A DNA stretch of 64,000 bases from an uncultured Methanosarcinaceae archaeon (GCA_963833425.1 CAWHXP010000018.1:1-64000), one strand, 5' to 3'. Positions 596 through 29,755 are shown, counted from the first letter of the stretch. Notes: generated by a model from the sequence alone, not told the origin. Program-made: numbers and translations.

Positions 596-761
596 AAGAT
601 ACTATATTTTTTTACGTGAATTATCATGAAAAATTTCTTTTAGGCAATGTTATATTCAACGATTTTGAAATATATTCGCTTTAAAATCGGCAAGAGGTAT
701 TGTTTTGAGTTTGATGTGATCTGTAATGATGATCATGTAAATTTTTTCGTTGGTTCTGAAC
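596..761 (+). pseudogene. IS200/IS605 tnpA remnant, left half (split by the integrated element)
   Basis: Translates to STILKYIRFKIGKRYCFEFDVICNDDHVNFFVGSE; nearly identical to the reverse complement of 29499-29660. Confidence 0.85.
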
Positions 762-785
762 CAACATAAATACCTATATTGTTTA
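749..785. repeat. Left junction: 13-bp core plus left terminal inverted repeat
   Basis: GTTGGTTCTGAAC (749-761), CAA, then CATAAATACCTATATTGTTTA (765-785). 749-765 is also a perfect GTTGGTTC-T-GAACCAAC palindrome. Confidence 0.9.
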
Positions 786-811
786 TCTATGATTAATTCC
801 ATCAAGTTAGT

Positions 812-1946
812 ATGGATAATTCAAAGATCTTAAAAGATTACTTAAGGAAGGTTAAGCAGATGGACTTACGGAAGAGACAATTGCACCTGCTGAATATACA
901 CTTATAAAGTTCATAGAATGGTGTGGAGATCGAGAATTAAAGGAATTACTACAGACGATGTTTACGATTATCTGGATTTTATAAATGCCTATACATACAT
1001 CAAAGCTGGTAAGGCAGTTAAGTACTCGCCTGGTACACAACAAAAAATCCGAACGGTTTTAAAAAAATTCTTGACTTTTATAAATCATGAACTCGGAGCC
1101 GTAATAAAATTGCGGACGCTAAAAAATGGGAAAATCCCCGAAGATATTTTGACTCGCGAAGAAATTGAAAAATTAATTGATTCATGTCTAAGTAACAGAG
1201 ATCGGGCTATAGTTGCTACTTTTTATGAAAGCGGAGCTAGAAGGGGCGAATTACTAACAGTTCAACTTAAACATGTGACTTTTGACGAGAATGGGGCAAT
1301 TCTTAATATACAGAAAGGGAAAACAGGAAGTCGCCGCGTGAGACTTGTATTAGCTTCGTCTTACCTTAAACAGTGGATTGACACGCATCCATTAAAGAAT
1401 AATCATGATGCTTACCTATTCTGTTCAACTAATTCTCCTTTTGGAGTCATCACATTTGTAGGACTTGCAGATCAACTACACAAAATAGCAAATAGAGCAG
1501 ATATCCAGCCAAAAAGAGTTTATCCACATGCATTTAGACATGCCCGAGCAACACATTTAGCCGAACAATTACCTGAACAACTTTTAAAAGAATATTTAGG
1601 CTGGACTAAATCAAGTAATATGGCGAGTGTATATGTGCATATGTCAGGTAGAGATGTGGATAATGCTATACTTAAATTGCACGGAATCGAGACTGAAGAA
1701 GCCCCCAAAAAATTTACTGTTAATAAATGCCCACGTTGTAAGGAAATAAATCCAGAAAATGCTTTATTTTGTTTTAAATGTGGACTGCCACTTACGCAGG
1801 AAGTTTCATCCACTGTAGAATCCGTAAAAACCGATTATATGCAATTTGCAGATCTTAACGAAATCCGGGAAATGAAAAATGTGTTAAAACAGGAACTTGA
1901 TGAAATTTCTAAGTTAAAGGAGTTGATGCTCAAAGCAGGAAAATAA
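812..1946 (+). CDS. Tyrosine recombinase/integrase with C-terminal Zn ribbon; two apparent N-terminal frameshifts (long ORF 918-1946)
   Basis: Catalytic motifs SGARRGE, KGKTG, HAFRH, LGW, VYVH; CPRC/CFKC Zn ribbon. ATG 812 gives MDNSKILKDYLRKV, then ADGLTEETI...WCGDRELK in another frame. Confidence 0.9.
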
Positions 1947-1989
1947 CTTTCTCGTAGAGCTTGATCCCAAAACTCAAAATTGCATCTTT

Positions 1990-2680
1990 TGATTTCAAAT
2001 TCCAAATGACTCACAAGCATAGACAGCTCATAACGAAGCTTAAAATGTGGAAGTCGAGCTATTTGATGAATTGCTGAAAGATTTATTTGTGGCAATCCCT
2101 GAACCAAGGCAAACAATAAGAAGGCCAAGCTTGTTAATTCCTGAATCTCTATTCTGTGCCATTCAGAAAGTGTACTCTCAGTTATCCAGCCGTCATCATT
2201 TAGTCTCTTTCAGAATGCAACTGAAAAAGGACAAATAGAACACGCAACCCATTTCAATGCGCCATCAAAACTCTTCAACATCTAAATATTACTCCAATTT
2301 TACAGAAATTGGTCTACGTATCTGCATTACCAGTAGCCGGATTAGCTACTAATTTCGTCGTCGATTCTACGGGATTCAGATCAACAACATTCCTCATATG
2401 CAACGAAATGGAACATGGACAGAGCAAAGAACATAAGTGCCTTAAGGCTTATATGTGTGGGTGTAAAGATCAACACAGTCGCTTCTGTGATCATAATTGA
2501 TGGGATTACAATGACTCCCCACAGTTTAGCCAATTGATTAATCAGGCATCAGAAGGCTTCTCAATGAATGAGATTTCTGCTGACTTAGCTTATTCGTCTC
2601 GCAAAAATTTTGACGCAGCAAATGTATTGGTGTGAGTCATATATCCCTTTTAAAAAAAATGTGACTGGAAGGGCAACTTG
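1990..2680 (+). pseudogene. Degraded DDE transposase (IS5-like) remnant
   Basis: Fragments ESLFCAIQKVYSQLSSR and FVVDSTGF, with multiple stops and frameshifts; boundaries approximate. Confidence 0.6.
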
Positions 2681-2693
2681 TTCTGCTATTTAG

Positions 2694-3374
2694 TCATAAT
2701 CTATAATAGTCCTTAACTGACCGGTAATTAGGGTATAACGAATGCCTCTCCATCCTTAAGAAGATATCCCAAAGAAAGTCTAAAAAATAAGAGGGGACTT
2801 GAGTCTGGCTTAGAGATTGGGTAGGGAATTCATAAGCATGATTTTCGAAATTTTCATAAGAATCTGCACGTTTACCGAGACTGTAAATATCTTCGACATC
2901 ATCGTATAAGGTTTTAAAGCTATTTTTCAAGCACTTATCAAAAAAGTGAATCGAATGGGACAACTGAATACGAAGCTCTTTGGCATGAATAGCATCTATA
3001 CAAGGATATCCTTTAATGATTTGCTCTTCAAGGATTAGATTTAAAGCCTGATCATATCTATTTAATTGTATCTCAGGATAGTGTTTTCGTATATTCCGCA
3101 AAGTTTCTAATTTTTCAATTTTCCATTTATGATATGACCCCGGATCTCGTGGAATTATTTCGATGCAACCTTTTTGTTTTAAACCTTTCAAGTGAGACCT
3201 AATGTTGTTCTCATCTAATAGATTATATTTTTTCTGAATATGTTTTATTATATCTGGCCCTGATACCACATCATTTTTAATGAGAATGTACTTGACAATT
3301 TCGATTTTTGCTTCGTTTTTATTTAAACGCTCGCCTCGGATTCTCCTCTTTTGTTCATTTTCATCTTCATTCAT
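2694..3374 (-). CDS. Winged-HTH protein, putative repressor of the element
   Basis: NIRSHLKGLKQKGCIE wHTH-like segment; divergent from the AbrB/replication operon. Confidence 0.6.
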   Translation of the reverse strand: MNEDENEQKRRIRGERLNKNEAKIEIVKYILIKNDVVSGPDIIKHIQKKYNLLDENNIRSHLKGLKQKGCIEIIPRDPGSYHKWKIEKLETLRNIRKHYPEIQLNRYDQALNLILEEQIIKGYPCIDAIHAKELRIQLSHSIHFFDKCLKNSFKTLYDDVEDIYSLGKRADSYENFENHAYEFPTQSLSQTQVPSYFLDFLWDIFLRMERHSLYPNYRSVKDYYRL

Positions 3375-3537
3375 ATGAAATTACATAAACTGCTGGATCT
3401 TAAGCTTTGTTATTTTACATTTTATAGGGGTACTGGATATAGTTTAGTTCTAATATCCAGGTGATATTCAACCTGAGGAATATCATTTTCAGATATTTAT
3501 ACATGTAATTTCCTAAGTAAGAAATAGTGGTAGTAAA

Positions 3538-3786
3538 ATGTTTAGATTTAAAAATAAAAAAATTCAACAGGTAAGAGGTTCGTTTTTTGTCTCTCTACCT
3601 AGTGAGTGGATCACAAGCAACGAAATGAAAAAAAGTGATCAAGTACGAATCGAACTATTAGAAGACGGAAATTTACAGATTTGCCCGGTCCCTCAGTCCG
3701 ACCAAGGCTCTAAGGGGACCGGAACAACGACAACAACCACCGTTTTAAGGAGATGTGCCGGCTATGGAAAATATGACCCAAAGTAA
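3538..3786 (+). CDS. AbrB/SpoVT-like DNA-binding protein
   Basis: KIQQVRGSFFVSLPSEW...KSDQVRIELLEDGNLQI swapped-hairpin signature. Confidence 0.8.
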   Translation: MFRFKNKKIQQVRGSFFVSLPSEWITSNEMKKSDQVRIELLEDGNLQICPVPQSDQGSKGTGTTTTTTVLRRCAGYGKYDPK

Positions 3787-3925
3787 TTTATTATTTGTGG
3801 AATGGTCAAAGCGTGTAAACTCTCAATATCCTGACATCTTGGAACATATGAGGAAGAGCACTGACCCCCTGGAAAGAGTCATCGCAAAACGAATTATACA
3901 AATTGCAGGTGGCAACAAAGAATGA
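3764..3925 (+). CDS. Small hypothetical protein (53 aa), not in the ORF track
   Basis: MENMTQSNLLFVEWSKRVNSQYPDILEHMRKSTDPLERVIAKRIIQIAGGNKE; AAGGAG upstream; its stop overlaps a downstream ATG (ATGA). Confidence 0.65.
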   Translation: MENMTQSNLLFVEWSKRVNSQYPDILEHMRKSTDPLERVIAKRIIQIAGGNKE

Positions 3926-3959
3926 CTAAAAACCATAATCCGAAAGATTTCAGGAGACC

Positions 3960-4532
3960 ATGAGAGTGGATTTCGATTTTGATAGTGTCAAATTGTCACC
4001 CACTTTTGCGGCTGGAATGATGGTCGAAAAATTGATCACTACCATTCCAATAAGAAAGCCGAATGCATACGAATTTTTTAGGGTTAGAGACGACTCGGAG
4101 TGGACTTTCTCACTGTATCTTCTCGATTTGAATGAAGGGGATGAGGAAAAATATATCGTAGCTCCAGAGCTGATCTCAGACGTAATGGATATTGGAAGGT
4201 TAAAGCCTGTAATGATCTACACTTTGATAACACATACCCACAAAATATTTTTCCTTTCAGATGTCCCACTCCCCGATCAAGACGGTAAAGATAATGGATA
4301 CCACCGAACTCGAAGAGAATCATACGCAATTGGCACGAAAAAATGGGTTCGGATCAAGGCTAACAAGGCTCTAGGTGCTTATGAAATATCCCTAGCAAAA
4401 GGTGAGTTGCCTGAACCTAAATGGCCAAAGGACCCAAAAACAATAAAAGATGCTTTAAATATTGCTTTTAAAAATAAGATTATTGATTCGATAAATCATC
4501 CAGTCTTGAAGCAACTTAGAGGGGAGCAGTGA
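3960..4532 (+). CDS. Hypothetical protein translationally coupled to PolA
   Basis: 190-aa ORF whose stop overlaps the PolA GTG start (GTGA); motif TIPIRKPNAYEFFRVR. The true start may be the out-of-frame ATG at 3922. Confidence 0.8.
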   Translation: MRVDFDFDSVKLSPTFAAGMMVEKLITTIPIRKPNAYEFFRVRDDSEWTFSLYLLDLNEGDEEKYIVAPELISDVMDIGRLKPVMIYTLITHTHKIFFLSDVPLPDQDGKDNGYHRTRRESYAIGTKKWVRIKANKALGAYEISLAKGELPEPKWPKDPKTIKDALNIAFKNKIIDSINHPVLKQLRGEQ

Positions 4533-6283
4533 AAATGCTCCCTATTTTTAAAAATATTTTTGTAATAGACTTCGAATTTATCGCTGATTCGGGAGAGACG
4601 TCGAAACCTGTGTGTATTGTAGCGCACGAAATTATTTCTGGGGAAACTAAAAAAGTATGGTTAGAAGGAAAAAACCCCCTTACCCTTAAACCACCATACC
4701 CTATGGATGAAACTGATTTATTTGTTGCATATTTTAGTTCTGCAGAATGGGGTTGTCATTTAGCTCTAAACTGGCCTTTGCCCATTCACGTAGTTGATTT
4801 GTATCCGGAGTTTAGAAAAATTACAAATGGGCTGCCTGGTGTCTCAAAAAGTCTATTGGGAGCTTGTCAACAATATGGAATCGCAGCCATAGCGGAATCA
4901 GAAAAGGAAAGTACTAGACAAAGGATAATGCAAGGGCCTCCTTATACTGAAAAAGAAAAAAGCTACATTATGGATTATTGCGCGTCTGACGTCATGGAAA
5001 CAGCGAAATTATTCAAAAAAATATCAATGGAGAGCAGTTTTGACATTGGCACAGCACTTTTTCGCGGTAAGTATATGGAAGCAGTAGCAATAATGGAATA
5101 TAATGGAATTCCGATCGACATTGAAACTTTAATAGCTTTAAAGGAAAATTGGACTTTAATTAAGGAGAAATTAATTCAGGAAATAGATCTCTTCTATGGA
5201 GTTTACGAAGGCACTATATTCAAGATTTCTAAGTTTGAGCAGTATTTGAATAAAAATGGGATCTCTTGGCCAAGGACTGAGAAAGGAAATTTAGAAATAA
5301 AAGATGATACTTTCAAGGAAATGGTTGTTTCATATCCGCAACTACAGGGGCTTAAAGATCTTCGGTATATTTTAGGACAATTGAAACTTTCAGAAATTTC
5401 TGTTGGATCTGACAATAGAAATAGATGCTTACTTTCGCCGTTTGCTTCTAAAACTGGAAGAAATCAGCCAAGCACAAGTAAATTCATATTTGGTCCTGCT
5501 GTCTGGCTCAGGAGTCTTATTAAACCTGAAAAAGGCAAAGTGTTAGCTCACATTGATTATTCTCAGCAAGAATTTTGTATAGCAGCTGCTTTGTCGAAAG
5601 ATCCTGAAATGAAAGCAGCCTACGAGTCAGGAGATCCTTATCTAGCGTTTGCAAAACAGGCCAGAGCAGTGCCACAGGAAGCAACAAAATCGACTCATAA
5701 AGCTGCAAGAGATCTTTTTAAAGCTTGTGTATTGGGGGTTCAATATGGTATGGGTCCCGATAGTCTGGCTTTGCGTATAGGCAAATCAACTCCTTACGCC
5801 AAAGAACTACTAAGGCACCACAAGAGAGTTTACCAAAAGTATTGGGCTTGGTGTGATCATGTCCTGGATACCACTCTTCTTTTCAGAAGGATAACTACCT
5901 GTTTTGGGTGGCAAATGCACATCTTTGGCGGAGAGAAGAAAGAAGGAAGAACAATCAAAAATTTCCCTTGTCAAGCTACGGGTGCGGAAATTCTCAGAGT
6001 CGCTTGCATTCTTCTTGTCGACAATAATATCAAACTCATTGCTCCAATCCACGACGCAATTCTAATTGAGTGTGATGAGGAAGAAGCCGATGAGACTATT
6101 TTCCAAGCCCAGAAATTAATGACCAAAGCTTCTTCCATAGTCTTGGGGCCTGGCAATTCCATTAAAACGGAAGCTAATGTCATTAAATACCCCGATAGAT
6201 ATTCTGACCCTAGGGGAGTTGAGACTTGGAATAAGATCCTAAGAATTATACAAGAAATCAAAGCCAAAAATTCTGGTGCTTGA
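4529..6283 (+). CDS. Family A DNA polymerase with 3'-5' exonuclease domain and no 5'-3' nuclease domain
   Basis: ExoI VIDFEF, ExoIII YCASDV, TGRNQPS, motif A DYSQQE, motif B RDLFKACVLGVQYGMG, NFPCQATGAE, motif C IHDA. Confidence 0.93.
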   Translation: MKMLPIFKNIFVIDFEFIADSGETSKPVCIVAHEIISGETKKVWLEGKNPLTLKPPYPMDETDLFVAYFSSAEWGCHLALNWPLPIHVVDLYPEFRKITNGLPGVSKSLLGACQQYGIAAIAESEKESTRQRIMQGPPYTEKEKSYIMDYCASDVMETAKLFKKISMESSFDIGTALFRGKYMEAVAIMEYNGIPIDIETLIALKENWTLIKEKLIQEIDLFYGVYEGTIFKISKFEQYLNKNGISWPRTEKGNLEIKDDTFKEMVVSYPQLQGLKDLRYILGQLKLSEISVGSDNRNRCLLSPFASKTGRNQPSTSKFIFGPAVWLRSLIKPEKGKVLAHIDYSQQEFCIAAALSKDPEMKAAYESGDPYLAFAKQARAVPQEATKSTHKAARDLFKACVLGVQYGMGPDSLALRIGKSTPYAKELLRHHKRVYQKYWAWCDHVLDTTLLFRRITTCFGWQMHIFGGEKKEGRTIKNFPCQATGAEILRVACILLVDNNIKLIAPIHDAILIECDEEEADETIFQAQKLMTKASSIVLGPGNSIKTEANVIKYPDRYSDPRGVETWNKILRIIQEIKAKNSGA

Positions 6284-6285
6284 TA

Positions 6286-6358
6286 AACACAACATAGGAA
6301 TTTATGGCTATTTACATCGGAATCTGTGACTATTTACATCGGAATCTGTGACTATTTA
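6286..6358 (+). repeat. 22-bp tandem iteron-like repeats (putative origin)
   Basis: CTATTTACATCGGAATCTGTGA at 6308-6329 and 6330-6351, a partial copy at 6352-6358 and a degenerate upstream copy; followed by an AT-rich tract at ~6385-6435. Confidence 0.8.
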
Positions 6359-6435
6359 AATAGACATGGATTCTACTCCGTCCTATTAATTATTTTTAGA
6401 TCTTTCTATTATTTAATATTATATAGGTAAATAAT

Positions 6436-6756
6436 ATGATAACTAAGAAAAAACTAAAATGTCATTTTATCCCCAATACTCCACTCTCTTGGATTCAGAA
6501 AGCTTTACTGTTACAAGGTAATGTAAATGCTACAAAATTAGCTTTGTATATCTGGTATGTAAAAGGTTTAAAGCAAACCAAAACGGATCTTGTTATTTCC
6601 AGTTCTACAGCTAATGATATTTTTGGTGTCAATAAAAGATCTTTCACAAGAGCTCTACAAAAATTGGTAGATTTGGGAATGATAACAACATCAATCCGTG
6701 AACGTGGTAAAAGTCCTAGAGTTACAGTAATATGGGAAGATTCTGAGATAGCATGA
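6436..6756 (+). CDS. Winged-HTH protein, possible replication initiator
   Basis: FGVNKRSFTRALQKLVDLGMITT...GKSPRVTV wHTH pattern, directly downstream of the iterons. Confidence 0.65.
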   Translation: MITKKKLKCHFIPNTPLSWIQKALLLQGNVNATKLALYIWYVKGLKQTKTDLVISSSTANDIFGVNKRSFTRALQKLVDLGMITTSIRERGKSPRVTVIWEDSEIA

Positions 6757-7182
6757 GTAATGAAGTTGGAGCAAATCTGTAACATAACTTTTCTTAATAA
6801 ATCTGCTGATCCTATAGGAGCTTCGTCTTGGAGGTTTAGACGATTAATAAGTATGTATGTTTTATAAATTTAATTTTATTTTTTAAATTGGATAAAAACA
6901 TATATAAAATATCTTGAAGCTGGTTACCGTGCAACCAAGGCTAAAGTATGGGGATTCGTTTTGGCCAAACAACGCCTTAATCTGGGACCACCAGGGAGAC
7001 TTTTATAGACTGTTTGACAAATATAGTTACCCTAGTTTAAAAAATGCCTTAAATCGCCCCAAAACCTGTCTTTTATGGCTTCATACTCAAAAGCTCGGCT
7101 ATTTCATACAGAAGAGAACTAATAAAATATTTAACATAAGATCCATATATATTACTTCAAATAAGCAAAAAACGGTGACTAA

Positions 7183-7605
7183 ATGGCTAGACCAACTAAA
7201 ATGACCCCCGATATAATCAATAGAATCGGTGACGGTATATCACTTGGACTTACTTATGCTCTTGCTGCCAATGCAGCCGGAATTACATATCAAACATTAA
7301 ATTTCTGGATGAACAAAGGAAAGAATTCAAAGTCTGGAGAATACTTTGAGTTCTATAAATATATAACTAAATGTAACGCTGATGCCGCGAAAGCTCTCCT
7401 AGAACGCTTAAACAAAGCAGCAGTTGCTGGTAATTGCCAAGTTTGCATGTGGATTTTGGAAAGGCGTTTCAGTGACGACTTCGGCAGGAGAGAATATCGT
7501 AAAATGGACATTGTTTCAGAGAATATAAATGAAAATGTTGAACTAACAATCAAGGAAGGAGATCAAATTAGAAAACAAATTTTAGCGAAGTTTGATCGGG
7601 GTTAA
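7183..7605 (+). CDS. Terminase small subunit-like HTH protein
   Basis: MARPTKMTPD...AANAAGITYQTLNFW...WILERRF..DFGRR resembles phage TerS-type proteins. Confidence 0.65.
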   Translation: MARPTKMTPDIINRIGDGISLGLTYALAANAAGITYQTLNFWMNKGKNSKSGEYFEFYKYITKCNADAAKALLERLNKAAVAGNCQVCMWILERRFSDDFGRREYRKMDIVSENINENVELTIKEGDQIRKQILAKFDRG

Positions 7606-8562
7606 GAAAGTCACGAGTTATCAGTTGATTAAGATTTTTCATCCTAAATTGGTATATTTTTACTAGAATATACTTTCCTTCTGATTTTATTCTGTGGTAT
7701 AATTGCGGTCGGACTACCAAGATCGTCACCATGGATTTTTCCCCAGATTATTCAGGCAGTAACTTTGTGTCCAACCTGCTATTCTCGTGAATTGAACTTT
7801 GAATGTTAACTGCCTGCTTATGCACATATTCTCATTTAACTTTTCTATCTGCTCGTCCTGGTGTGCCGCTGCTCGTCCTTAATGCTCATCTGACCGTAAA
7901 GTGCTTGGATCTAAGCCCAGATGCTCGAGGGTTTCTGTCTTTATCTGCAGAAGGGCACTATCGAATAGTGGAGTACAACACCCCCATCGATAACTGAAAA
8001 TGAAGCAAAAAAGATTAGAATGAAAATTTTAGAAAAGATTAGAATTAGAGATAGGTACATTGAATCATTTATCTAACTGAAATGCTCTTGATAGTTTAGT
8101 TAATTAAGTCGATATTACTCATTTTGCGCAATTTTTTATAAATTGATAAGAACTATATTTAATCAATAAGATGCAATAATTTAATATTTATAAAAATTTT
8201 TATAGTTCTAAAATATTTTAATCCAGAATAAATTTTATTCAAAAACTATTTTTCAGCTCATTAATTTGATATAACGGATTATTTCATATTGTAATTAGCC
8301 GAAAGTGACATCAATGGTATATTGTGCATGCTCACAATGGGGGTGGTAGAAGCTAAGATGCTAAGCATTTTAATCCACGCGGGGGGCAAAGCCGTCACCT
8401 CTTATAAGGTATTGCAGAAGATGATTGATCTGGACTGTCCTTAACTATGTTTCTCTATTATTTTTACAATATCGTTTTTATAAAAGAACTCTAAGTTAAT
8501 ACACGAGTTCGTCATTATTGAAAATAAGTCGCATGCAAAGAACAAAAATAGAGGAGTGAATC

Positions 8563-8988
8563 ATGAAAAAGCTATCCGATAATTTGCAAGAGCTCGCAGG
8601 CCATGTGGCGGATGCAGAAAAGAAAGTCGCGGCCGCCGAACAAGCATCCAAGGAAAAGGTAGAAGCCTCGATCCAGAAATCAAAAGCAGATGCTAAAGCA
8701 AGGCAGGAATCGTTCAAAGCTGACGTCAAAAAGCGCCAGGAAGCGACGGCTATGCATTGGCAAGAACTCCAGGAAGGTTATCATCAGAAGATTCAGCAAA
8801 TCAAGAACAAAATTAAAACCGAAAAAGAGGCTATGGAAGCCAAGCAAGCAACAAGACGGGCGGATGATTCGGAGGCGTATGCCGAGGCTGCCATCAATTT
8901 TGCCATGATGGCAATTGACGAAGCCGAAGTGGCAGTGCTGGAAGCGATTGACGCACGGGTATACGCTGAATCGTTACCTCAAAAGTGA
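8563..8988 (+). CDS. Coiled-coil hypothetical protein
   Basis: 141-aa Ala/Glu/Lys-rich helical ORF with GAGGAG upstream. Confidence 0.8.
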   Translation: MKKLSDNLQELAGHVADAEKKVAAAEQASKEKVEASIQKSKADAKARQESFKADVKKRQEATAMHWQELQEGYHQKIQQIKNKIKTEKEAMEAKQATRRADDSEAYAEAAINFAMMAIDEAEVAVLEAIDARVYAESLPQK

Positions 8989-9225
8989 GGACAGCGTTCA
9001 GATCATTGCGAAAGTTGGAGAGAAGTAGATATCGACCGAATGTCTCGTCAACGATATAATGTCGTATTAAATCGGATACATCTATTCGGAATCTTTCAAT
9101 CTTTGAGGATTGACGCGACACTAGTGCATCGATTCAAAAATTGATCAATATTTGAAGTAAGAATTAATTGATCGATAGTGAATTTATAGCTAGGGTTTAT
9201 GGACATTTTTTGAAATCGAAGCACT

Positions 9226-9333
9226 AGCTAACGCTCAGCATGAGCCATGCGGAACTGAAACCGTGAAACAACCAACAACCTGAAGCAAAAACAGAAAGGC
9301 GTAACCCGCATTGGCTCGATGCGTTTGTTAGGC
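9226..9333 (-). other. Integron attC-like recombination site (solitary)
   Basis: Minus strand GCCTAAC-AAAC-GCATCGAGCCAATGCGG...CCGCATGGCTCATGC-TGAGC-GTTAGCT: R''/L''/L'/R' layout with two unpaired bases on the R'' arm. Confidence 0.75.
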
Positions 9334-9401
9334 CACGATCAAAGGACAAAAATGAAAACTGCAAAACTGATAAAAGACAACCTACTAAGGATAAGAAACA
9401 T

Positions 9402-11232
9402 ATGTTCTACAGTAATGGTAACTACGAAGCGTTCATTCGTCCCCGCAAGCCGCAGGGCGTGGACGGGAAGTCTACCTATCTCATCGGTGGTGGCATCGCC
9501 TCGCTCGCAGCGGCGGGCTTTTTGATCCGCGACGGGCAGATGGACGGAAAACGCATCACCATCTACGAGGCGAGCAATATCGCTGGCGGCTGCCTAGACG
9601 GCATCAAGCACCCAAAGGAGGGCTACCTCTTCCGTGGCGAGCGCGAGATGGAAGACCACTACGAGTGCTTGTGGGATCTGATGCGCTCGATCCCGTCGCT
9701 CGATGTCAAGGACGCCTCGGTCCTTGAAGACTTTTACCGGATCAACAAGGATCACCACAACTACTCTCTGTGTCGGACCACTCACAAGCGCGGGCAGCCT
9801 TTCCCGACCGACGGCAAGATGCTCCTGACCCCCAAGGCGCAGGGCGAGCTGATGAAGCTCTTCTACACCCACCGAAGAGAGCTATTCGACAGGCGGTTCG
9901 AAGAATTCGTGAGCGAGGAGTTCTTCGCCAGCAACTTCTGGGTGTATTGGCTGTCGATGTTCGCCATCGGGCCCTGGCACGGTGCCCTAGAGATGAAGCT
10001 CTACATGAACCGCTTCGTCCAGCACTTCGGTGGGATGGCGGATCTCAGCACCATCAAGTTCACACGCCTCAACCAGTTCGACTCTCTGGTCCTCCCGCTA
10101 GTCAAGTGGCTCGAGCAGCAGGGCGTCATTATTGTGTACGACACGAAGGTCACCAACGTCGTGTTCGATATCACCCCGGAACGCAAGGTCGCTCGCCGGA
10201 TCGAGTGGATCCAGGCCGGAAAGCGCGGAGGACGCGACGTCACCAAGAACGACATCGTCCTCATTACCAACAGCTCTGCGGTCGAAAACACCTCTTGGGG
10301 GGACCACCACACCCCGGCCAAGTGGATTAGGGACATCCAGGAGGGCAGCATCTGGGCGATGTGGCGCAACATCGCCGCCCAGGACCCTGGCCTTCGGTCG
10401 GCCCGACAAGTTCTGTACCCACACTGACAAGAGCAGCTATGAGTCGGCATGTATCATCACCCTCGACGACAAGATTCCGCTCTACATCGAGCGGATCTGC
10501 CAGCGCGACCCGTACAGTTTCGACTGGAGCCCCATCACCGGTGGCTTGGTGACTGTGCGCGATTCCAATTGGCTGCTGTCGTGGAACGTCGAGCGCAAAC
10601 CGCACTTCAGGGACGCGCCGAAGGACCAGCTGATGATTCACGCCTACGGCACGTACAGCCTCGACCGGCCCGGCAACTACGTCAAGAAGGCGATGCGTGA
10701 GTGCACTGGCGAGGAGATCGCCCTGGAATGGCTCTATCACCTGGGGGTGCCTGACGATCAGATCGACCAGCTGGCGGCCAAGTCGGTGATCGTGCATCCG
10801 TGCATGATGCCCTACATCACGGCCTTCTTCTTGCCACGGCGTGACGGCGACCGTCCCAAGGTAGTGCCCGAGGGAGCGGTCAACTTCGGGTTCCTGGGGC
10901 AGCTCGCCGAGAGCCATCCGAGGGATGTCATCTTCACCGTCGAATACTCAGTGCGGACGGCGATGGAGGCGGTCTACACCCTGTTGGACATCGAGCGGGG
11001 CGTGCCGGAGCCGTGGGGCTCGCAGTACGACATTCGTGCGCTGCTCAACTCGGCGATCGTGCTGCGGGATGGCGAGAAGCTAAAGCTGCCCCCTGCGATC
11101 GAGGCGTACCTGGCGAACACCGAAATCGGCGAGCTGCTGAGGGACTACGGGTTCATCGGCGAACTCGGCGACAACGAGCTCACGGTCGCGATACACAAGA
11201 ATCTTCCGCAGGTGACTCAAACGGTCCTCTAG
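9402..11232 (+). pseudogene. Oleate hydratase (MCRA family), single +1 frameshift at ~10389
   Basis: MFYSNGNYEAF, IGGGIASLAAAGFLIRDG, RGEREME, then FGRPDKFC...CMMPYIT...FTVEYSVRTA in another frame; visibly GC-rich. Confidence 0.9.
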
Positions 11233-11249
11233 AGACTAGCGGAGAGACG

Positions 11250-11663
11250 GAATGGACCAGGACTGTTATATGATAATCATTCCATAGACTCTCCCAAAAC
11301 TCCAGAAAAAGCTACACATTGAATGAGGATATCGTGAAGCTGGCCATTTAATTTATTGCTGACTCCAAAAAAGTCGCACCCACCAAACCATTGTTTATGT
11401 ACTTCTGTCCAGGTGCTATGAATGCTCCTCACCACTTTCCTAAGGAGTGGGCAGATAAATACAAAAGTAAGTTCGATGATGGTTGGGACGTTTACCGGGA
11501 GAAAACCTTAGCCCAGCAGAAGAGACTTGGTATAATTCCAAAACAAACCGAACTATCTCGCCATGACCCGGATGTCAAGCCATGGGACCAATGCTCACCT
11601 GAGGAAAAGAAACTCTATGCTCGTATGATGGAAGTCTTTGGTGGGTTCCTGGAACATCTATAA
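11250..11663 (+). pseudogene. Arylsulfatase internal fragment
   Basis: FMYFCPGAMNAPHHFPKEWADKYKSKFDDGWD...YARMMEVFGGFLEH; both termini missing. Confidence 0.75.
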
Positions 11664-11737
11664 CTCATGAAGAAATAGGAAATAGTTAATCTAAACCACA
11701 ATAATAAAAAGAAATATCCAAAAAAGTTGTTGCTCTC

Positions 11738-13352
11738 CTACGATTGATGCATCGTTTTGAACATGTTCCAGATGACGCTAATATCGGTACTTACTCGTTG
11801 GAACGGGTTTGGTTCTTTGGGGATATTCAGCAGTTTGAAGACCGCCATTTGGGCTGTGCGCACCGAATATTCCATCGTGAAGACACAATCGTCTGGCACT
11901 TCAACTAACTGACCGGTGAGGGCAAGGTTGGTTGAGCCTTTCGGAACAACATCAGGTCGGTCAGTAACCTTTCTCTTCAGAAACTGGCTTGTGACGAAAG
12001 GCATCCTGCAGGGTAAGACGTTTGACGAATCCAGAATCTGCTTCACAGGTCGGCGTCGAACCCCAAGTGACGCACCAGCTCCTCCAGAATCTCTCTTCCG
12101 CTGCATTGACCCATTGGTTTGCGGACATAGTCGCCGATTTTGTCGGCGTAGAGACCTAAGCCGTAAAACACGTAAACGCCTGCTGTCTGGTTCTGGTAAT
12201 ACGGCTGATGGTTGAGGATAAAAGCCAGCGACCAGCTGGACTCTGGAAGCGAGGTGATCCCGTTCTTACCGGCTTCTTGCCCGCTGAATTTCTCCATTAA
12301 ATCAAAGAACCGCCGGTCCTTCTGGGTCACCGTGAATGACGTGAATGAAGACTCGTCGATGTGACCGGTGAAGACCGAAGGATCACGAAAGATGTCCTTG
12401 CGCTTTCGGGCGAGAGTCTCCCAAAGTGCCCATTTCCCCTCATGCGTCGGCGACGTGATCAGCTCAGGTGCGGAATCATTCGAACCAAAGGAGGCATTTG
12501 CTACCATCGAGCCCAGCGTAACTATGACAATGTCCTCCGGCCTGACTGCAATCTTCTTTTGCTTTCCGTCCTGGACCATCGTGATCCCGCAGACGGTGAT
12601 TTCGCCATCATTGTCGTTCCCGATGTCTATATCGGTCACTCGGGTCTTCCCCACGTATTGCACACCACGGTCGGTCAACCACTTAATGATCGGGCGCACC
12701 ATCAAATCGTACTGGTTATACCTGGTGTGGTGGAGCAAGTTTTGAGTTGCCATATCCGGGAACAGATGCATGAATCTCAGCAGGTAGCGTCGCATTTCAA
12801 TGGCGCTGTGCCATGGTTCAAAGGCAAAGAGCGTTTTCCACATGTGCCAGAAATTCGTTTCAAAAAAGTGCTCTGAGAAGACGTCGCTGATACGCTTATC
12901 GTTCGACGCACTTTCCAGTTTGGCAGTTAACGCGAGGAGCTCCAACTCGTCTTTCGGATTAAAACCATAAGAGTGGAAGTTCAGAATCTTACAGAGTGAA
13001 AGTTCAGAATCTTACCGTTGGCGACCAGGCGAGCCTTGTTGTTCCAGCGGACGGCATTAGTGAACTCGAGGGTGTCCTGCTTGATCGTTTTCGTCGGGTC
13101 ATCCAGTGAGGGGATGAAAGAAAGCAGATCGTACATGCAGACGTAATTCTCCTCGAACATGCGCTCGCCGCGCATGAAGTAACCTTTTTCAGGAGTGCCA
13201 GCTGAGTCAAGACATCCGCCCGGTAAACTCTCCTCCTCGTAAATGTTGATGTTCGCACCTGAAAAGCCGCCGTCTTTGATCAGGTAGGCAGCAGCAGCCA
13301 GATTTGCGATTCCTGACCCGATCAAGTGTGCCTTGCGTCCTTCATTGTTCAT
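11738..13352 (-). pseudogene. Second oleate hydratase, broken by a 23-bp duplication and a 2-bp insertion
   Basis: IGSGIANLAAAAYLIKDG, RGERMFE, FAFEPWHSAIEMRRY, NQYD, FTMEYSVRTA spread over three ORFs; duplication at 12970-12992/12993-13015; second shift near 12043. Confidence 0.9.
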
Positions 13353-13645
13353 GAACAGTCTCTCATCATATTTTTATTAAGTTAGATATAATTTTAATCC
13401 GATTAGGAAAGTACGCAGTTAAATTGAAAAACATACTGTTGACAAAAAATTATGATAGCCAGGCATGCCGATATCCTGTGAGCTTCAGCTGCTAATGTTG
13501 TCAACGATACTATAAAAAAACTGCAAGCAGTAAAGCAATATCATGTATTCTTATTTCTAATGATTTAGGCTACCATCCTTGGTATTCATAGCCCCGACTC
13601 TTTCACAGCTACGTCTTTATCATCATCAGTCGTTATTGGCTAACT

Positions 13646-14134
13646 TTATTCTTCTGCAAAAGTTGCACGCAGCTTATCTTCTTCTTCCTTTGATAGGTTA
13701 GAAGCAATGAGTTCGAACTTTGTTTGTTTCATAGCTTCTACTACCTTATCTTCAACGGCGTCGCTAGTCATTAGAAACAAAGCTGAAGTGCCTTCAGTTA
13801 CTTTGCTACGAATAGATTTTATGAAATCTTCATCGATTCCAATATGGGTCATGGAACCGGAAATTGCACCTATTGCAGCCCCAGCGACCAAGCCTAATAA
13901 CGGAATGAAAAATATCAAGCCAAATAACATGCCCCAAAAAGCACCACTCAATGCACCTACACCGGTTAAATCAGTCAAATGCTTTGTATTTGGTTTCTTT
14001 TTTCCCACAGGCCAGGTGACTATAGCAGCATCTTGTAGTTCAATCAGTTGTTTCTTACTTAAATTTTCAATTATTTCAAGTTCATTTTCGGCACCTTTAG
14101 CGGTGTCAAACTTAAGAACTGTTAAAGTTGTCAT
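13646..14134 (-). CDS. DUF1269-like membrane protein
   Basis: GALSGAFWGMLFGLIF...GIDEDFIKSIRSKVTEGTSALF glycine-zipper pattern. Confidence 0.8.
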   Translation of the reverse strand: MTTLTVLKFDTAKGAENELEIIENLSKKQLIELQDAAIVTWPVGKKKPNTKHLTDLTGVGALSGAFWGMLFGLIFFIPLLGLVAGAAIGAISGSMTHIGIDEDFIKSIRSKVTEGTSALFLMTSDAVEDKVVEAMKQTKFELIASNLSKEEEDKLRATFAEE

Positions 14135-14399
14135 TACACAATCTCCTCTTCTGCTTCACATTTATTTCTAGGTTGATTTACCGTACCATCCTATGGTATA
14201 GATTTTCTTACTAGATATTATTTAAAAATAATTATACAAAAAATAGTTTCTAAACAATTTTTTCCCTCTACTTGAATATTTTGACATTAAACAATATTTT
14301 TATATTAATTATGTATTAATATATTTTATATACACTGCTCACTTTTTCATTACTCATTTTCCACAAAATATTTTGGAATATACCATAAGGGTTTTGAGT

Positions 14400-14677
14400 C
14401 TTGACATCAAAAAATGACTGATTGCGGGGCAATTTAAGGTATTTTCTCGAATCCAAAAGGTATCAAAGGAAAAATCACTGTGAAAGACTCGTTCATAGTC
14501 GATGTTTACGGATCAGCTAACCAGCCTGTTTGTGCCTTTATGAGCGGCTACTTTGCAGGTTACCTGATAGATTATTTTGGGAAGAATATCAGTGTAAGAG
14601 AGATTAGCTGCAAAGTTACAGGAAAAAACGTATGCAGGCATGCAATTTCATTGGCATTCTCTGACGTATACCAGTGA
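14400..14677 (+). pseudogene. V4R domain fragment
   Basis: PVCAFMSGYFAG...VREISCKVTGKNVCRH; N-terminus degraded. Confidence 0.65.
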
Positions 14678-14959
14678 CTAAAAAGAGATATACCTTGATC
14701 AGATATCAGAATGCCATTTTCGGAGATAATGAACTGCTTGTGACAATGGGAAGAAGGGGGATATCTTAGGTTCATTTTATATTCACATATATCATCCCAA
14801 GCACTTAGAATAATTCCTTACCGTGTCCAGACAGTGGGAGAACTTTTCTAGACAATTGATAATTATAGACATAGCACCCAGAATAATATAGAGAATTGAC
14901 TCGTGAAAATCAGATGTTAATAAAAATCCTTAATAATATTGCATTGTGTCTAGAGGTGA

Positions 14960-15436
14960 TCATAGTTTTCCTGGCATATATGACCTCAATTTCATTAAAG
15001 TTTCTGTTCCATACCTACGTAATTCTTTGATCTCTTTTTGGTATACAAAAGCTGCTGGTACTAACATAAATGGAATGGTTGACGCAGCTTTAGCTCCTTC
15101 TGAAATAGGCAATGTGGCTAAAACATTCGCTCCAGTCGCACCATAAATAGGAACTATAGGAACTAGCATAGCTAAACCAAATGTTCTTCTGAAATGGATG
15201 CCTAATTTTGCAGCCAAGAAACCATTGGACCCTATGAGCAAACCAATACCCACACTAGGCCCTATAGTCTCAAAAAGATTATACGATGGTCCAACATAGA
15301 TCCCAAAATCAATGCCAAACAAGGAAACAAGACCATGGACTTGATCCCTATCATGATTGGAATTCCCTCCAAAACTTGATAAAACTATGCCTATATCCAG
15401 TTGCAGAGGTCCTTTTTCTACTTTTCTTTCACCCAT
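14960..15436 (-). CDS. Hypothetical membrane protein
   Basis: 158-aa hydrophobic, Gly-rich ORF. Confidence 0.5.
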   Translation of the reverse strand: MGERKVEKGPLQLDIGIVLSSFGGNSNHDRDQVHGLVSLFGIDFGIYVGPSYNLFETIGPSVGIGLLIGSNGFLAAKLGIHFRRTFGLAMLVPIVPIYGATGANVLATLPISEGAKAASTIPFMLVPAAFVYQKEIKELRRYGTETLMKLRSYMPGKL

Positions 15437-15585
15437 TATATCATTGATATCTCAAATCCATAATATAGTTTATTGCTATTATGATACTGCTCTATTTAAA
15501 TCTAAAGAGGATTTCGATTTACTTCTAATTTTTTTTCACGAGAATCCTGGTTAAATCTTTTCTGCGAATTTCTGTTTTTTATTAT

Positions 15586-15675
15586 AGAGATTTTCGATAA
15601 ACTTCGATTTCAACAAATTGCGTATATACACTTTATAAACAACCAGCCCAAAATTGGGGTTTATCAAAATCCTCT
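15586..15675. mobile_element. ~90-bp MITE copy inside the integrated element
   Basis: AGAGATTTTCGATAAAC...GTTTATCAAAATCCTCT. Confidence 0.75.
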
Positions 15676-16001
15676 TTGGATGGAACTGTGGAAATTCATC
15701 ACCTATCATAGGTGCTGTGCGTACTTTGATTTTATGATGAAATAATTGGATATCTGTATAGTTTTGGTTAAAAACTTTGAATTATCTAACCATGAGATAG
15801 GTAGGTTTTGTATGAAAACTTCTACATAAGTAAAAACGATAAATCCTATTTTTTGGAATGAAATAAAACAGGAATGGAGAAAAGTCATTTTTACAGAACA
15901 TTTAGTACAAGGTTTTATAATTTTTCTGTAAAATAACAATACCAGCAAGTATTAGGTAAAAAGTTGGAAATTAAACGATTAATCAGATATGGAGTTTACA
16001 G

Positions 16002-16871
16002 ATGACTGAAACTAAAAAATCAGATTTTTGGATAGATCATAAACTACGTGTGATGTTAGCAGAGTATAATTCATTAAGATCAGATATTAAGTCTAAAAGT
16101 GAGTTTCAAAGTCGCCTTTTACAGATCCATATTACTGTCTTAACTACTATTATTGGAGCAATTTTATATAAAAATGCCCAATTATGGCTACTGTTTCTCA
16201 TTCCAATTGAGTCATTACTATTTGGTTCTTGGTATCGAAATTATGCTTCAAGCATTCTAGGAATTGAAACATACATCAGAAAGGAAATTGAATCCAAAGT
16301 CAAGGAAATGCTAGGAGATAGATACCTAATGGGGTGGGAACACGCTAAGATGGTAGACGTTATTCCATATGCAACCTACAGAGAAAATAGTTTCTGGTCA
16401 TTAGTTCAGTTGACTTTTTTGGGACCGTCTATATTAATTTCAAAATTTGCTTTGATTTTGTTAATACAGCGGTTGCTAGTTTATACTGCCTGGGGAGTTA
16501 TCGATGTCTCCATCTTTTTTGTATTTATCCCTTTTTTATTCTGCTTAGGTTGGTTTGTATTATTCCCATCTAGTAAAAGCGGTGAAAAGAAAGAATTTGA
16601 ATCCAAAATAAAGTTTGGTCATTTCTGGCTCTCAATTTTTTTGCTTTTTTGTGGGGTATCTTCTATAGTTATTATAAAAACTTTGATTTCCATAAGAGAG
16701 CAGTTGCTAATTCACAAAGAATGGATGGTTATCCAGCTTTATCTGCTCTTTGTATTTAGTTTTGTTTTAGTGGGTTTAGGTTGGTTCGGATTCTACTCGA
16801 TTAATAATGCTTATGGAAAGATACGCTTTGAATGTAACGAAGAATTAGAGCGCGAATTCCTAAAAAAATAA
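16002..16871 (+). CDS. Multi-pass membrane hypothetical protein
   Basis: 289-aa ORF with several hydrophobic segments; N-terminal AEYNSLRSDI helix; GGAG upstream. Confidence 0.75.
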   Translation: MTETKKSDFWIDHKLRVMLAEYNSLRSDIKSKSEFQSRLLQIHITVLTTIIGAILYKNAQLWLLFLIPIESLLFGSWYRNYASSILGIETYIRKEIESKVKEMLGDRYLMGWEHAKMVDVIPYATYRENSFWSLVQLTFLGPSILISKFALILLIQRLLVYTAWGVIDVSIFFVFIPFLFCLGWFVLFPSSKSGEKKEFESKIKFGHFWLSIFLLFCGVSSIVIIKTLISIREQLLIHKEWMVIQLYLLFVFSFVLVGLGWFGFYSINNAYGKIRFECNEELEREFLKK

Positions 16872-17840
16872 AACTTGATACAATAGGTGCGAAAAAATCT
16901 GCATTTTATACGGCTTCTTGGGGATAAAATAGCTTTTTTGTTAACCAGCTTTATGGCAGATTCTTATTTAGCTAATATGTATTAATAGAAACGTTCAAAA
17001 AGAATAAACCTGGCTTTTATAATGTCATCCATTTCTTTCATGCATTATCTCTATAATTGACTGATTAGTCAGTTACACTGCAATTTTACGTTGTTAGATA
17101 AATTTTTATAGTGCTTTTTTCTTGACTCGTCCCGATGAATTTCAAAAACCAACTTTTAATGCATAAAATACCTTTAGAATTTTATCTAAGTTTGTCTATT
17201 AAACAAGTCTCATAAATAGGATCAAATTCTTCTGACTCAAGAATACTACTCTTGGCATCCAAAAATCTCATCTTTGGTATTTTGAAAATACTTTATAGTA
17301 TAAAAATTATAAAAATATAATTTTATAATTCATCTAAGGCATAATTTTTAATAAGTTAATGATAATTCTATTAACTCTACGATTTAAGTCTCACTGTGAG
17401 CTTCTAATGAGCTCACACATTTATCTAGAACTTTCCTATTCCTCTGTCTAAATACTTTACAACATGCTATTAAGTGACTTTTGGATAGGCTATGGGCTCA
17501 GACATATTCACTTTTGAAGCAAGCTGAATCTCTTTCAAATGCATGGACTAGTTGAAGGATGGTGAAACTTTAATCTAGCATGGCTGATATTAGGGAAAAG
17601 TGAAGATTTCGTTAGTTTTCGCTCACCCGGAGATTAAAATGAAATCTATCCTATAGTTTTACTATAGAAACTGCAACCAAACTTAACCAGTTACATATGG
17701 TCAAGAAGAGATTCATAACTAGTAGATATATTGAATGGGTATATTCTATTTGATGCCCTGCGAAGTACAGAATAAATATAGGATTATTATCTTGATAAAG
17801 AAATATTATTTAATTTTCAAGTAATAATTAAAGAAAGCTG

Positions 17841-17877
17841 TAGACAATACAGGTATTTATGGTAGTTGGTTCTGAAC
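17841..17877. repeat. Right junction: right terminal inverted repeat plus 13-bp core
   Basis: TAGACAATACAGGTATTTATG (17841-17861; 19/21 match to the reverse complement of 765-785), GTA, then GTTGGTTCTGAAC (17865-17877). Confidence 0.9.
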
Positions 17878-29199: not shown

Positions 29200-29664
29200 T
29201 GCTGCCCCCATCTCAAAAAACAGAGTATGTTAGCTCTCCACGTTGGATATATAGGAATTGTTCAAAATCAAATACTTCAATTTGCTTAGTATACTTCGTT
29301 TTCGTTCTACTTTCCCCGATTTTGAACATAGCTTTTATTTCATCGGAAGTTGGGCCACCACCCGCAGTTCCAATGTAATCTCATTTGCTCTAAAGTTCAT
29401 CACCTCATAGCTGTTTTTTATCTCAGAATATTCTTTAAAGTATTTTCTTGCTGTGGTACTTTTTATAATCTGCATCACTATTGTAAAAAAATAGTTTAGT
29501 TCCGAACCAACGAAAAAATTTACATGATCATCATTACCGATCACATCAAACTCAAAACAATACCTTTTACCAATTTTAAAGCGAATATATTTCAAAATCG
29601 TTGAATATACCATTGCCTACAAGAAATTTTTCATGATAATTCACGTAAAAAAATATATTATTTT
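29200..29664 (-). pseudogene. IS200/IS605 tnpA remnant, uninterrupted copy containing the empty-site equivalent (29499-29511)
   Basis: FEFDVIGNDDHVNFFVGSELNYFFTIVMQIIKSTTARK; the His-hydrophobic-His motif is degenerate (HVN). Confidence 0.85.
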
Positions 29665-29755
29665 AGAGAATTTAGAGAAGCTTCTAAATTTTGTCCTATG
29701 CTTAGGAATTGTATGTTTGTATCTAGATCGTTAAAATAAAAGTTTATCGAAATTT
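29665..29755. mobile_element. MITE copy abutting the tnpA remnant
   Basis: AGAGAATTTAGAGAAGCTTC...AGTTTATCGAAATT; same arrangement as 507-595. Confidence 0.6.

Follow-up and report, generated by a model that had tools for sequence, protein, structure and literature searches.

The 64,000-nt stretch of DNA analyzed here (the window; GCA_963833425.1 CAWHXP010000018.1:1-64000), from an uncultured Methanosarcinaceae archaeon, carries at positions 749-17880 what we consider, on balance, to be an integrated mobile element and putative satellite of a helper virus. The small tyrosine-integrase elements to which it belongs form a large and mostly bacterial family, whose shared trio encodes a partner protein (p190), a family A DNA polymerase (PolA), and a winged helix-turn-helix (wHTH) protein (p106). 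That the island is a mobile element with a replication module is the most secure part of this picture and is very probable; packaging by a helper virus through a terminase small subunit (TerS), confined to the Methanosarcinaceae lineage, we rate at about even. We see in it a variation on known kinds of element, in which a helicase-less PolA/p190/wHTH replicon carried on integrase elements would have crossed into methanogens and occurs there together with TerS. A first-pass annotation of the window had proposed a PolA-based self-synthesizing element class. The PolA operon is indeed the replication module of a bounded integrase element, but the presence of TerS makes a satellite at least as likely.

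The source genome is that of a methanogenic archaeon. In the window, aIF2-gamma, an Rpb7-like RNA polymerase subunit, ribosomal protein S24e, F420-dependent enzymes, and archaea-specific DUFs are encoded, an archaeal signal recognition particle (SRP) RNA lies at 42918-43232, and the nearest relatives in the genome collection were Methanosarcinaceae. The integrated element spans 17.1 kb between 16-nt direct repeats, whose expected number by chance, estimated from 100 shuffles, was 0. Immediately inward of these cores, arms of ~21 nt (765-785 and 17841-17861) form an inverted pair (27 nt, 85% complementary) that would flank the core in an excised circle, as in a tyrosine-recombinase attP. Two unoccupied targets were found. 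In a related genome (L004; related loci are given L numbers), the two outer flanks are joined across a single core, and a three-way alignment identified a second uninterrupted copy inside the window (core at 29496-29511), one side of which matches the attL outer flank and the other that of attR. This copy lies within a 92-aa open reading frame (ORF; 29335-29613) with 65% identity to L072:14742-15128, which itself has a PF01797 match (E 1.2e-24); judged by this homology, the element has inserted into the coding sequence of an IS200-like Y1 transposase. Targeting of a multi-copy insertion-sequence gene may explain the occurrence of several element copies per genome, with four loci in one metagenome-assembled genome (MAG) and three in another. 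Taken together, direct repeats, unoccupied targets, and inner arms define the island as 17.1 kb, and there is good support for a tyrosine recombinase that integrates and excises the element at an IS200-like target. The bounded element with a tyrosine recombinase (918-1946) described in the first-pass annotation was therefore confirmed by the repeats and both unoccupied targets, and its extension to 17880 had been overlooked. The integrase also matched the XerA-like model NF040815 (E 1.9e-29, under the curated cut-off), and copies 86-92% identical to it occur in L001, L072, and L008.

Central to the replication module is PolA, which comprises 584 aa from a GTG overlapping the p190 TGA, or 582 aa from an ATG at 4535. 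The polymerase profile matched the Taq, Klenow, and Bst structures at E values of 1e-15 to 1e-24. In an alignment of 12 family members, D343 of motif A, R394/K398/Y406/G407 of motif B, and H508/D509 of motif C were invariant or nearly so, as were the exonuclease residues (D14 and E16 nearly invariant; E73, Y150, and D154 invariant), and the DEDDy 3'-5' exonuclease residue set is present; the motif A/B/C and Exo I-III labels follow what we take to be the Pol I pattern. L402, four residues past K398 at a position occupied by Phe in Pol I, was also invariant. The polymerase motifs and exonuclease noted in the first-pass annotation are thus conserved family features, and its contrast between an intact PolA and a decaying cargo held, the PolA ORF being full-length and the MCRA genes of high GC broken. 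Consistent with the same annotation, which had reported no primase, helicase, or Cas1 in the element, no domain of these kinds, nor of PolB, was detected by Pfam in the scanned island ORFs (13 proteins, 6 ORFs, and 22 small ORFs). The best isolated-phage match to the polymerase was 28.7% identical, with all 1137 records below 60%, and no plasmid record matched it at E<=1e-30. Some members of the polymerase family are auto-annotated as 'thermostable'.

A pattern scan of one genome per species found relatives of the polymerase at 16 archaeal and 62 bacterial loci (78 in all), and with profile HMMs the gene order around PolA was found to be strongly conserved. p190 was encoded directly upstream of PolA in 67 of the 73 loci with enough flank (archaeal, 14/16; bacterial, 53/57), and four of the six loci without it there have a 5'-truncated PolA. 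On the downstream side, a p106 homologue directly followed PolA in 63 of the 70 loci with flank (archaeal, 13/15; bacterial, 50/55). Members of the tyrosine integrase cluster occurred in the fetched flanks of 49 of the 78 loci and serine recombinases in 4, many of the remaining loci being short contigs. Whether homologues of the polymerase recur with the 190-aa gene, the wHTH gene, and an integrase had been raised in the first-pass annotation, and all three associations are borne out by these counts.

p190 had no match in Pfam, PHROGs, NCBIfam, or PADLOC, and none of 40 p190 family members had a Pfam match. The family is nonetheless large, a profile search of 1.84 billion representatives returning 5793 at E<=1e-3, 4290 at E<=1e-10, and 1936 at E<=1e-30; among the 150 matches listed, the relatives were stand-alone proteins of 187-339 aa. 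A word-indexed search gave 14 close relatives and undercounts the family relative to tblastn on the loci and the profile search. p190 thus stands for an unannotated protein family that numbers thousands of clusters. Its members share no conserved acidic residue, and conservation is strongest at W129, P153, F170, and a motif at the extreme C-terminus. Its AlphaFold2 (AF2) model was confident (pLDDT 92.8) and beta-rich, and the top PDB fold matches were the oligonucleotide-binding (OB)-fold cores of the T4 and RB69 gp32 single-stranded DNA (ssDNA)-binding proteins (SSBs), none of them significant (E 0.07-0.2). Against predicted viral structures (BFVD), seven matches were obtained at E<=1e-3 (TM 0.24-0.46, five of them 0.37-0.46), and several lower-ranked matches (E 1e-4 to 1e-2, TM 0.3-0.47) are named ssDNA-binding proteins. 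With moderate confidence, we regard p190 as a probable ssDNA-binding accessory subunit. The isolated-phage collection held no close relative of p190 or PolA.

Fold matches of p106 (AF2 pLDDT 86.5) were to generic wHTH proteins and included the N-terminal iteron-binding domains of RepA_N plasmid initiators (4pql, 4pt7, and 5kbj), which scored no better than generic regulators. MarR_2 was matched by 7 of 36 p106 family members, and weak PHROG matches pointed to families of DnaD-like and of replication-initiation proteins (E 1.6e-3 to 9.8e-3). Tandem repeats of 21-24 nt separate the PolA stop from p106 in six of the eight archaeal loci examined (L001, L002, L005, L006, L008, and L054) and are absent in the other two (L003 and L007). 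The iteron sequence differs per element, as expected if each p106 recognizes its own repeats. The operon of the first-pass annotation (AbrB, 53 aa, 190 aa, and the 584-aa polymerase, followed by iterons and a wHTH gene) was recovered with every ORF in place, its iterons being three 22-nt repeats and its winged helix having the support of model, fold search, and the Pfam matches of relatives. As read from this gene arrangement, the element would be replicated by p106 acting at the iterons together with a PolA-p190 synthetic core.

Archaeal hosts of the family include Methanosarcina and other Methanosarcinaceae, Methanolobus, Methanosalsum, Methanoregula, and Methanoperedens, while bacterial hosts belong to Planctomycetota, Pseudomonadota, Acidobacteriota, Myxococcota, Bacillota, Bacteroidota, Verrucomicrobiota, and others. 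Locus L006, from Methanolobus sp. ZRKC3, is an example of an intact copy. The typical bacterial element is ~5-7 kb and encodes an AlpA/HTH_17 excisionase-like protein, p190, PolA, p106, an integrase, and a few proteins of no assigned role. A quick maximum-likelihood tree was built from 56 PolAs of at least 520 aa, the 22 loci with shorter or split genes being omitted. Rooted on L078, it placed the 10 intact archaeal PolAs in one clade (SH-aLRT 99) among unresolved bacterial lineages, which fits a single transfer from bacteria to methanogens followed by spread among methanogens. The class is not archaeal in origin and is better described as a mostly bacterial family with one archaeal clade. Neighboring proteins were scanned in chosen subsets (20, 54, and 55 proteins by Pfam; 115 by PHROGs), and no primase or replicative helicase was found among them; the exceptions of note were L013, which encodes a type I restriction HsdR, and two archaeal elements, L005 and L026, which encode DnaA/IstB-like AAA+ proteins. 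These AAA+ ATPases (phrog_5484) are encoded downstream of PolA (L005, 13295-14173, E 5.8e-12; L026, 7829-8698, E 1.1e-10) and possibly load a helicase in some of the lineages. Proviruses that are complete and carry primase-helicase genes, which the first-pass annotation had named as a setting that would speak against its proposal, were not seen, the scanned relatives being compact elements. In a Methylophilales element (L074, 2259-9940), genes encoding ArdC, a Sak single-strand annealing protein, and a YqaJ exonuclease lie upstream of p190, PolA, p106, and the integrase.

Overlooked in the first-pass annotation was the TerS gene at 7183-7605, downstream of p106. The match is near full length, residues 1-126 of 140 aligning with profile positions 9-139 of 166. 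TerS had a single match in a collection of 50,697 phage records, ORF8 of Methanobacterium virus PhiF3 (25.6% identity), which is encoded immediately upstream of the PhiF3 large terminase and portal genes. By tblastn, TerS or fragments of it were found in 8 of the 16 archaeal loci, all Methanosarcinaceae, and the TerS cluster consists of seven loci plus the window. Scans of the island and of proteins from the archaeal loci (54 with Pfam, 43 with PHROGs) revealed no gene for a large terminase, portal, or capsid. The element combines traits of satellites, namely an integrase and an att-flanked island, its own replication module with a putative origin, and TerS without a full structural module. 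Given the presence of TerS, a virus-satellite lifestyle akin to that of phage-inducible chromosomal islands (PICIs) or VEIMEs is at least as likely as a 'self-synthesizing' one akin to that of casposons or pipolins. Among the bacterial relatives, a Planctomycetaceae locus (L027, 7218-15425) encodes an integrase, p190, PolA, an excisionase-like protein, a major head protein, and TerS, a layout suggestive of a capsid-forming satellite built on the p190-PolA replication module. L013 carries a head maturation protease, and these two bacterial loci were the only ones of the 26 scanned with PHROGs to have capsid or packaging genes.

The proposed life cycle would begin with excision of the element as a circle by its integrase, after which p106 would bind the iterons and PolA and p190 would copy the element, p190 holding ssDNA as an OB-like partner. 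Priming could be provided by the PolA-p190 pair (as for CcPol-MP), by a transcript, or by the host primase, and we think it rather unlikely, by analogy, that the pair itself supplies it. Unwinding could occur through strand displacement, with p190 coating the displaced strand, or through host MCM recruited by p106. Multimers would then be recognized by TerS and packaged in the capsids of a helper head-tailed archaeal virus, as in PICI- or VEIME-like satellites. In its boldest form, which is likewise rather improbable, p190 and a CHEAP-type PolA would constitute a two-subunit primase-polymerase that, aided by nothing more than an iteron-binding wHTH protein and in the absence of helicase and primase, replicates the whole element class. 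One lineage would have crossed from bacteria to methanogens, gained TerS from an archaeal virus, and thereby given rise to the first PICI-like satellite of archaeal head-tailed viruses, with IS200-like transposase genes as its insertion targets.

Several components of this picture have counterparts in the literature. The available text of Czernecki et al. 2023 (PMC10201439) describes PolA cluster #15, the 'CHEAPs', which occurs in Proteobacteria and part of the Methanomicrobia. Its members have Leu at motif B3 and a full set of exonuclease and polymerase motifs, and both activities were shown for the enzyme of Ideonella dechloratans (WP_151124575), the reference of the subfamily; a thumb that bends back on a C-terminal helix is a further trait. 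The same portions of that paper present CHEAPs as 'cellular', not replacing Pol I, with 'no known partners', and closest to the CcPols of staphylococcal elements. The window PolA is similar in length (~580 aa), in its complete exonuclease and polymerase motifs, in having Leu at B3 (L402), and in coexisting with a host replicase, and it fits the CHEAP subfamily as likened to the paper's description, the Ideonella reference enzyme standing outside this comparison; no enzyme of that name was present among the 120 family matches listed. The host range found here is wider, including Planctomycetota, Acidobacteriota, Bacillota, and Bacteroidota, and unlike the published description, the polymerase resides on integrase elements with a near-universal p190 upstream and a wHTH protein downstream. 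The reading of CHEAPs would accordingly shift from cellular, partnerless enzymes to mobile-element replicases with two fixed partners.

By analogy, the PolA-SSB primase of Bacillota elements comes nearest as a mechanistic precedent. PolA-SSB primases (CcPol-MP) of staphylococcal cassette chromosome (SCC)-like elements were reportedly treated by Bebel in 2020. According to the accessible portions of Rice 2023 (PMC10061031), PolA-SSB primases occur in Bacillota elements, mostly with large serine recombinases, all 17 pairs being helicase-linked in the order Pol, SSB, helicase, and the OB-fold partner often docks on the polymerase by a C-terminal extension. The present elements likewise pair a family A polymerase on integrative DNA with a small beta-rich protein of no detectable family; the two together would cover priming and elongation, and the conserved C-terminal tail of p190 is a likely docking piece. 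Unlike PolA-SSB, however, the partner gene comes first, its product of ~190 aa is not a minimal OB barrel, the recombinase is of the tyrosine type, and the hosts are many bacterial phyla and methanogens.

In overall layout, the element resembles PICIs, SaPIs, and VEIMEs, with an end integrase, a regulator transcribed divergently, a replication module and origin of its own, TerS, att flanks, and a size of 7-17 kb, and like them it is without capsid or lysis genes. PICIs replicate with a primase and a helicase; the replication enzymes of this element are, unlike theirs, p190 and PolA. Pipolins have a tyrosine recombinase, att direct repeats, and their own family B polymerase (piPolB), and casposons have a Cas1 integrase, a family B polymerase, and terminal inverted repeats with target duplication. 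As in both, an integrative element brings its own replicative polymerase, and the tyrosine recombinase and direct-repeat att sites are pipolin-like. Unlike casposons, the element has no Cas1 or PolB domain and ends in direct repeats, and unlike pipolins, its polymerase belongs to family A and a TerS gene is present. For marine phage satellites (VEIMEs), PolA (COG0749) is tabulated in 117 in the available parts of Eppley 2022 (PMC9618062), which do not take it further; 78 of these fall in module 6 (40% of the module), which also holds TerS. The likeness of the VEIME polymerase to the p190-associated PolA is one of COG label, not of compared sequences. Archaeal satellites associated with spindle viruses are reported in the accessible text of a preprint (10.1101/2025.02.15.638363), and no satellite of an archaeal head-tailed virus was found in the openly searchable literature. 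Nor did that literature, PMC4158269 and PMC13573593 included, describe the p190-PolA-wHTH trio, its association with integrase elements, or an archaeal TerS-bearing PolA element. Parts of the first-pass proposal are already in print, namely CHEAP PolAs, PolA-SSB primases, and COG0749-bearing satellites.

A number of observations weigh against a TerS-packaged satellite replicated by a PolA-p190 core. TerS is limited to the Methanosarcinaceae clade and a few bacterial loci, so a satellite lifestyle cannot be generalized to the family, and no helper virus was identified, the sole TerS match in the phage collection being only 25.6% identical. The fold assignment of p190 is weak: the best PDB match had E 0.07, probability 0.33, and TM 0.31, the BFVD TM scores (0.24-0.47) are low, a p190 profile search of PDB sequences found nothing, and the ESM Atlas gave only subthreshold leads (best score 0.89). 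Binding of p190 to PolA is suggested by synteny and gene overlap. Iterons were absent from the equivalent place in three of the four bacterial loci examined, and no co-operonic helicase of the PolA-SSB type (COG3378 or DUF927) was found in the island or in scanned neighbors. With the window counted, 7 of 17 archaeal PolA genes are split or truncated, which could reflect dead copies or assembly errors in long-read MAGs. Finally, the direction of transfer hangs on a root consisting of a single long-branch sequence, L078.

The most serious alternative, which we regard as possible though improbable, is an autonomous, plasmid-like integrative element, a PolA counterpart of pipolins that needs no helper and in which the TerS-like protein is an HTH regulator, an excision cofactor, or a relic. 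Most loci do have the core of integrase, p190, PolA, and p106 without TerS, packaging or capsid genes are as rare as noted above (2/26), the phage collection yielded no helper, and pipolins share the same combination of tyrosine recombinase, att direct repeats, and own polymerase. A regulator or relic is harder to reconcile with a full-length TerS match at E 4.9e-25, with a PhiF3 homologue in the canonical position before the large terminase, and with the retention of TerS beside a conserved non-coding right end in several elements, and no plasmid record carries the polymerase at E<=1e-30. The order of integrase, regulators, replication genes, and TerS is also that of temperate tailed viruses, and in the window copy TerS is directly followed by decayed DNA, as would be seen in a deletion remnant of a head-tailed provirus that retained only its integrase, replication genes, and first packaging gene. 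Such a remnant is nevertheless very unlikely. The same compact layout recurs in independent loci, and a right end with an att-proximal arm follows TerS in L001, L003, L014, and L076. L001 (6178 to ~13362, about 7.2 kb) runs from the integrase through PolA to p106, p96 (the 96-aa protein), TerS, and ~300 bp of conserved non-coding right end, where it gives way to a nitrogenase (nif) operon; a basic Methanosarcinaceae form of ~7 kb without capsid genes is not a deleted provirus. The scans of archaeal-locus proteins described above, negative for large terminase, portal, and capsid, and the distance of the polymerase from phage records (28.7% at best, all 1137 below 60%) point the same way.

We consider it similarly far-fetched that the polymerase serves the cell, as the name CHEAP implies, in an auxiliary (repair or back-up) role and simply lies within a variable genomic island. 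The available text of PMC10201439 calls the subfamily cellular, not replacing Pol I, and without known partners, but here PolA is flanked near-universally by p190 (67/73) and p106 (63/70) and usually by an integrase, iterons adjoin it, it lies in att-bounded DNA whose sites are unoccupied elsewhere, and it occurs in several copies per genome, many of them broken. Least credible of all is an antivirus defense system built on a PolA-like enzyme. The polymerase matched the PADLOC defense-associated reverse transcriptase (DRT)-associated model RTasPolA (E 5.9e-30), and satellites often carry defense genes according to portions of PMC9618062. However, the RTasPolA score (102.6 bits) is about equal to that of the generic Pfam PolA model (97.8 bits), and the match was rejected as a sign of defense, being generic PolA similarity. 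No reverse transcriptase adjoins the gene, the other 14 island proteins had no defense-model match save a weak coiled-coil one, and the protein has the exonuclease and polymerase motifs that mark a replicative enzyme.

Replication in archaea relies on polymerases of families B and D. If a family A replicon does work in methanogens, a bacterial-type replication system would be functioning in an archaeal cell. If PolA-p190 primes, the PolA-SSB primase idea would extend beyond Bacillota to many phyla and archaea in a helicase-free form. To our knowledge, few viruses are known in methanogens, and if the TerS-bearing Methanosarcinaceae elements are satellites, virus-satellite biology would be opened in these organisms.

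Table 1. Features of the integrated element and of its unoccupied target copy in the window
Feature	Position	Strand	Basis
attL core, 16-nt direct repeat GTTGGTTCTGAACCAA	749..764	.	Outer sequence continues in both unoccupied targets (L004, window 29.5 kb)
Inner arm beside attL	765..785	.	Inverted repeat of 17841-17861
Tyrosine recombinase/integrase, C-terminal zinc ribbon	918..1946	+	PF00589 E 1e-21; zinc-ribbon matches; phrog_1 E 3.5e-34
Putative wHTH regulator, 226 aa, divergent	2694..3374	-	Weak LexA_DNA_bind match E 9.3e-4, sub-cut-off
AbrB/MazE-type DNA-binding protein, 82 aa, operon gene 1	3538..3786	+	PF04014 E 2.3e-6
Small protein, 56 aa from GTG or 53 aa from ATG at 3764	3755..3925	+	ORF call
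p190, 190 aa, conserved polymerase partner, possible OB-like ssDNA-binding protein	3960..4532	+	ORF, synteny, and model
PolA, family A DNA polymerase with 3'-5' exonuclease domain, without 5'-3' exonuclease domain	4529..6283	+	PF00476 E 8.3e-28; phrog_17 E 2.9e-50
Three tandem 22-nt iterons, putative origin	6292..6357	.	Repeat search; directly after PolA stop
p106, 106 aa, winged helix, putative iteron-binding initiator	6436..6756	+	AF2 model, fold search, Pfam on family members
96-aa protein, overlaps TerS start	6914..7204	+	ORF; conserved in L001, frameshifted there
TerS homologue, 140 aa	7183..7605	+	phrog_4102 E 4.9e-25
9.6-kb extra segment, absent from L001	7608..17231	.	blastn: L001 goes from TerS straight to conserved right end
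Coiled-coil ORF (cargo segment)	8563..8988		
Broken MCRA/oleate hydratase pieces	9402..11232	+	Pfam; GC 48-61%
Broken MCRA/oleate hydratase pieces	11738..13352	-	Pfam; GC 48-61%
DUF1269 gene	13646..14134	-	Pfam
Conserved non-coding right end, with palindrome (17396-17416) and inner arm (17841-17861)	17232..17864	.	blastn to L001, L003, L014, L076
attR core GTTGGTTCTGAACTAA	17865..17880	.	Direct repeat and unoccupied-target comparison
Unoccupied paralogous target copy, within IS200-like Y1 transposase gene (29335-29613, minus)	29377..29746	-	blastn, three-way alignment

Other features of the island are listed in Table 1. Relatives of the divergent 226-aa regulator are 358-406 aa long; only its N-terminal ~170 aa align with the homologues in L001, L072, and L008, and no trace of their C-terminal part was found anywhere in the window. 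AbrB homologues occupy the equivalent place in L001, L008, and L072. The 53/56-aa protein is conserved in L001, L072, L008, and L006 and had no family match in Pfam, PHROGs, or NCBIfam. ORFs at 2047-2500 had been considered as transposase fragments; they were without a Pfam match, and this assignment was dropped.

Relative to the basic ~7-kb form, the window's element has gained 9.6 kb of decaying foreign DNA between TerS and the right end. GC content is ~35% across the window and 48-61% within the 9-13 kb segment, and the MCRA DNA at 9402-13352 looks foreign, probably bacterial, and in decay inside the island. The cargo segment also holds a V4R fragment and ORFs without assigned function, and window positions 11864-17865 are 94.8% identical to DNA of L060. 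In L008, a different cargo lies between p106 and TerS. The right end contains no ORF of at least 33 aa. Its palindrome core, CTTCTAATGAGCTCA at 17396-17416, is common to the right ends of L001, L003, L014, and L076 and could be a packaging or regulatory site. An RNA gene in the right end was unsupported, RNAalifold detecting no covariation there (term +0.5, compensatory changes in 3 of 38 pairs).

A dispersed MITE-like repeat of ~95 bp (76-84% identity) occurs in the window (15578-15675 and 58435-58533) and in L001 (685-777), L014 (3213-3307), and L072 (8209-8295). Outside the island, a DinB/Dpo4-type (IMS family) polymerase gene and a gene fragment lie at 30696-31058 and 36078-37193 of the window, and duplicated DinB genes adjoin the PolA elements of L004 (13535-15821) and L014 (15950-18061). 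Between 32854 and 35625, the window has several TPR genes in a row, which look fragmented, and after them a gene for a CHAT-domain protease.

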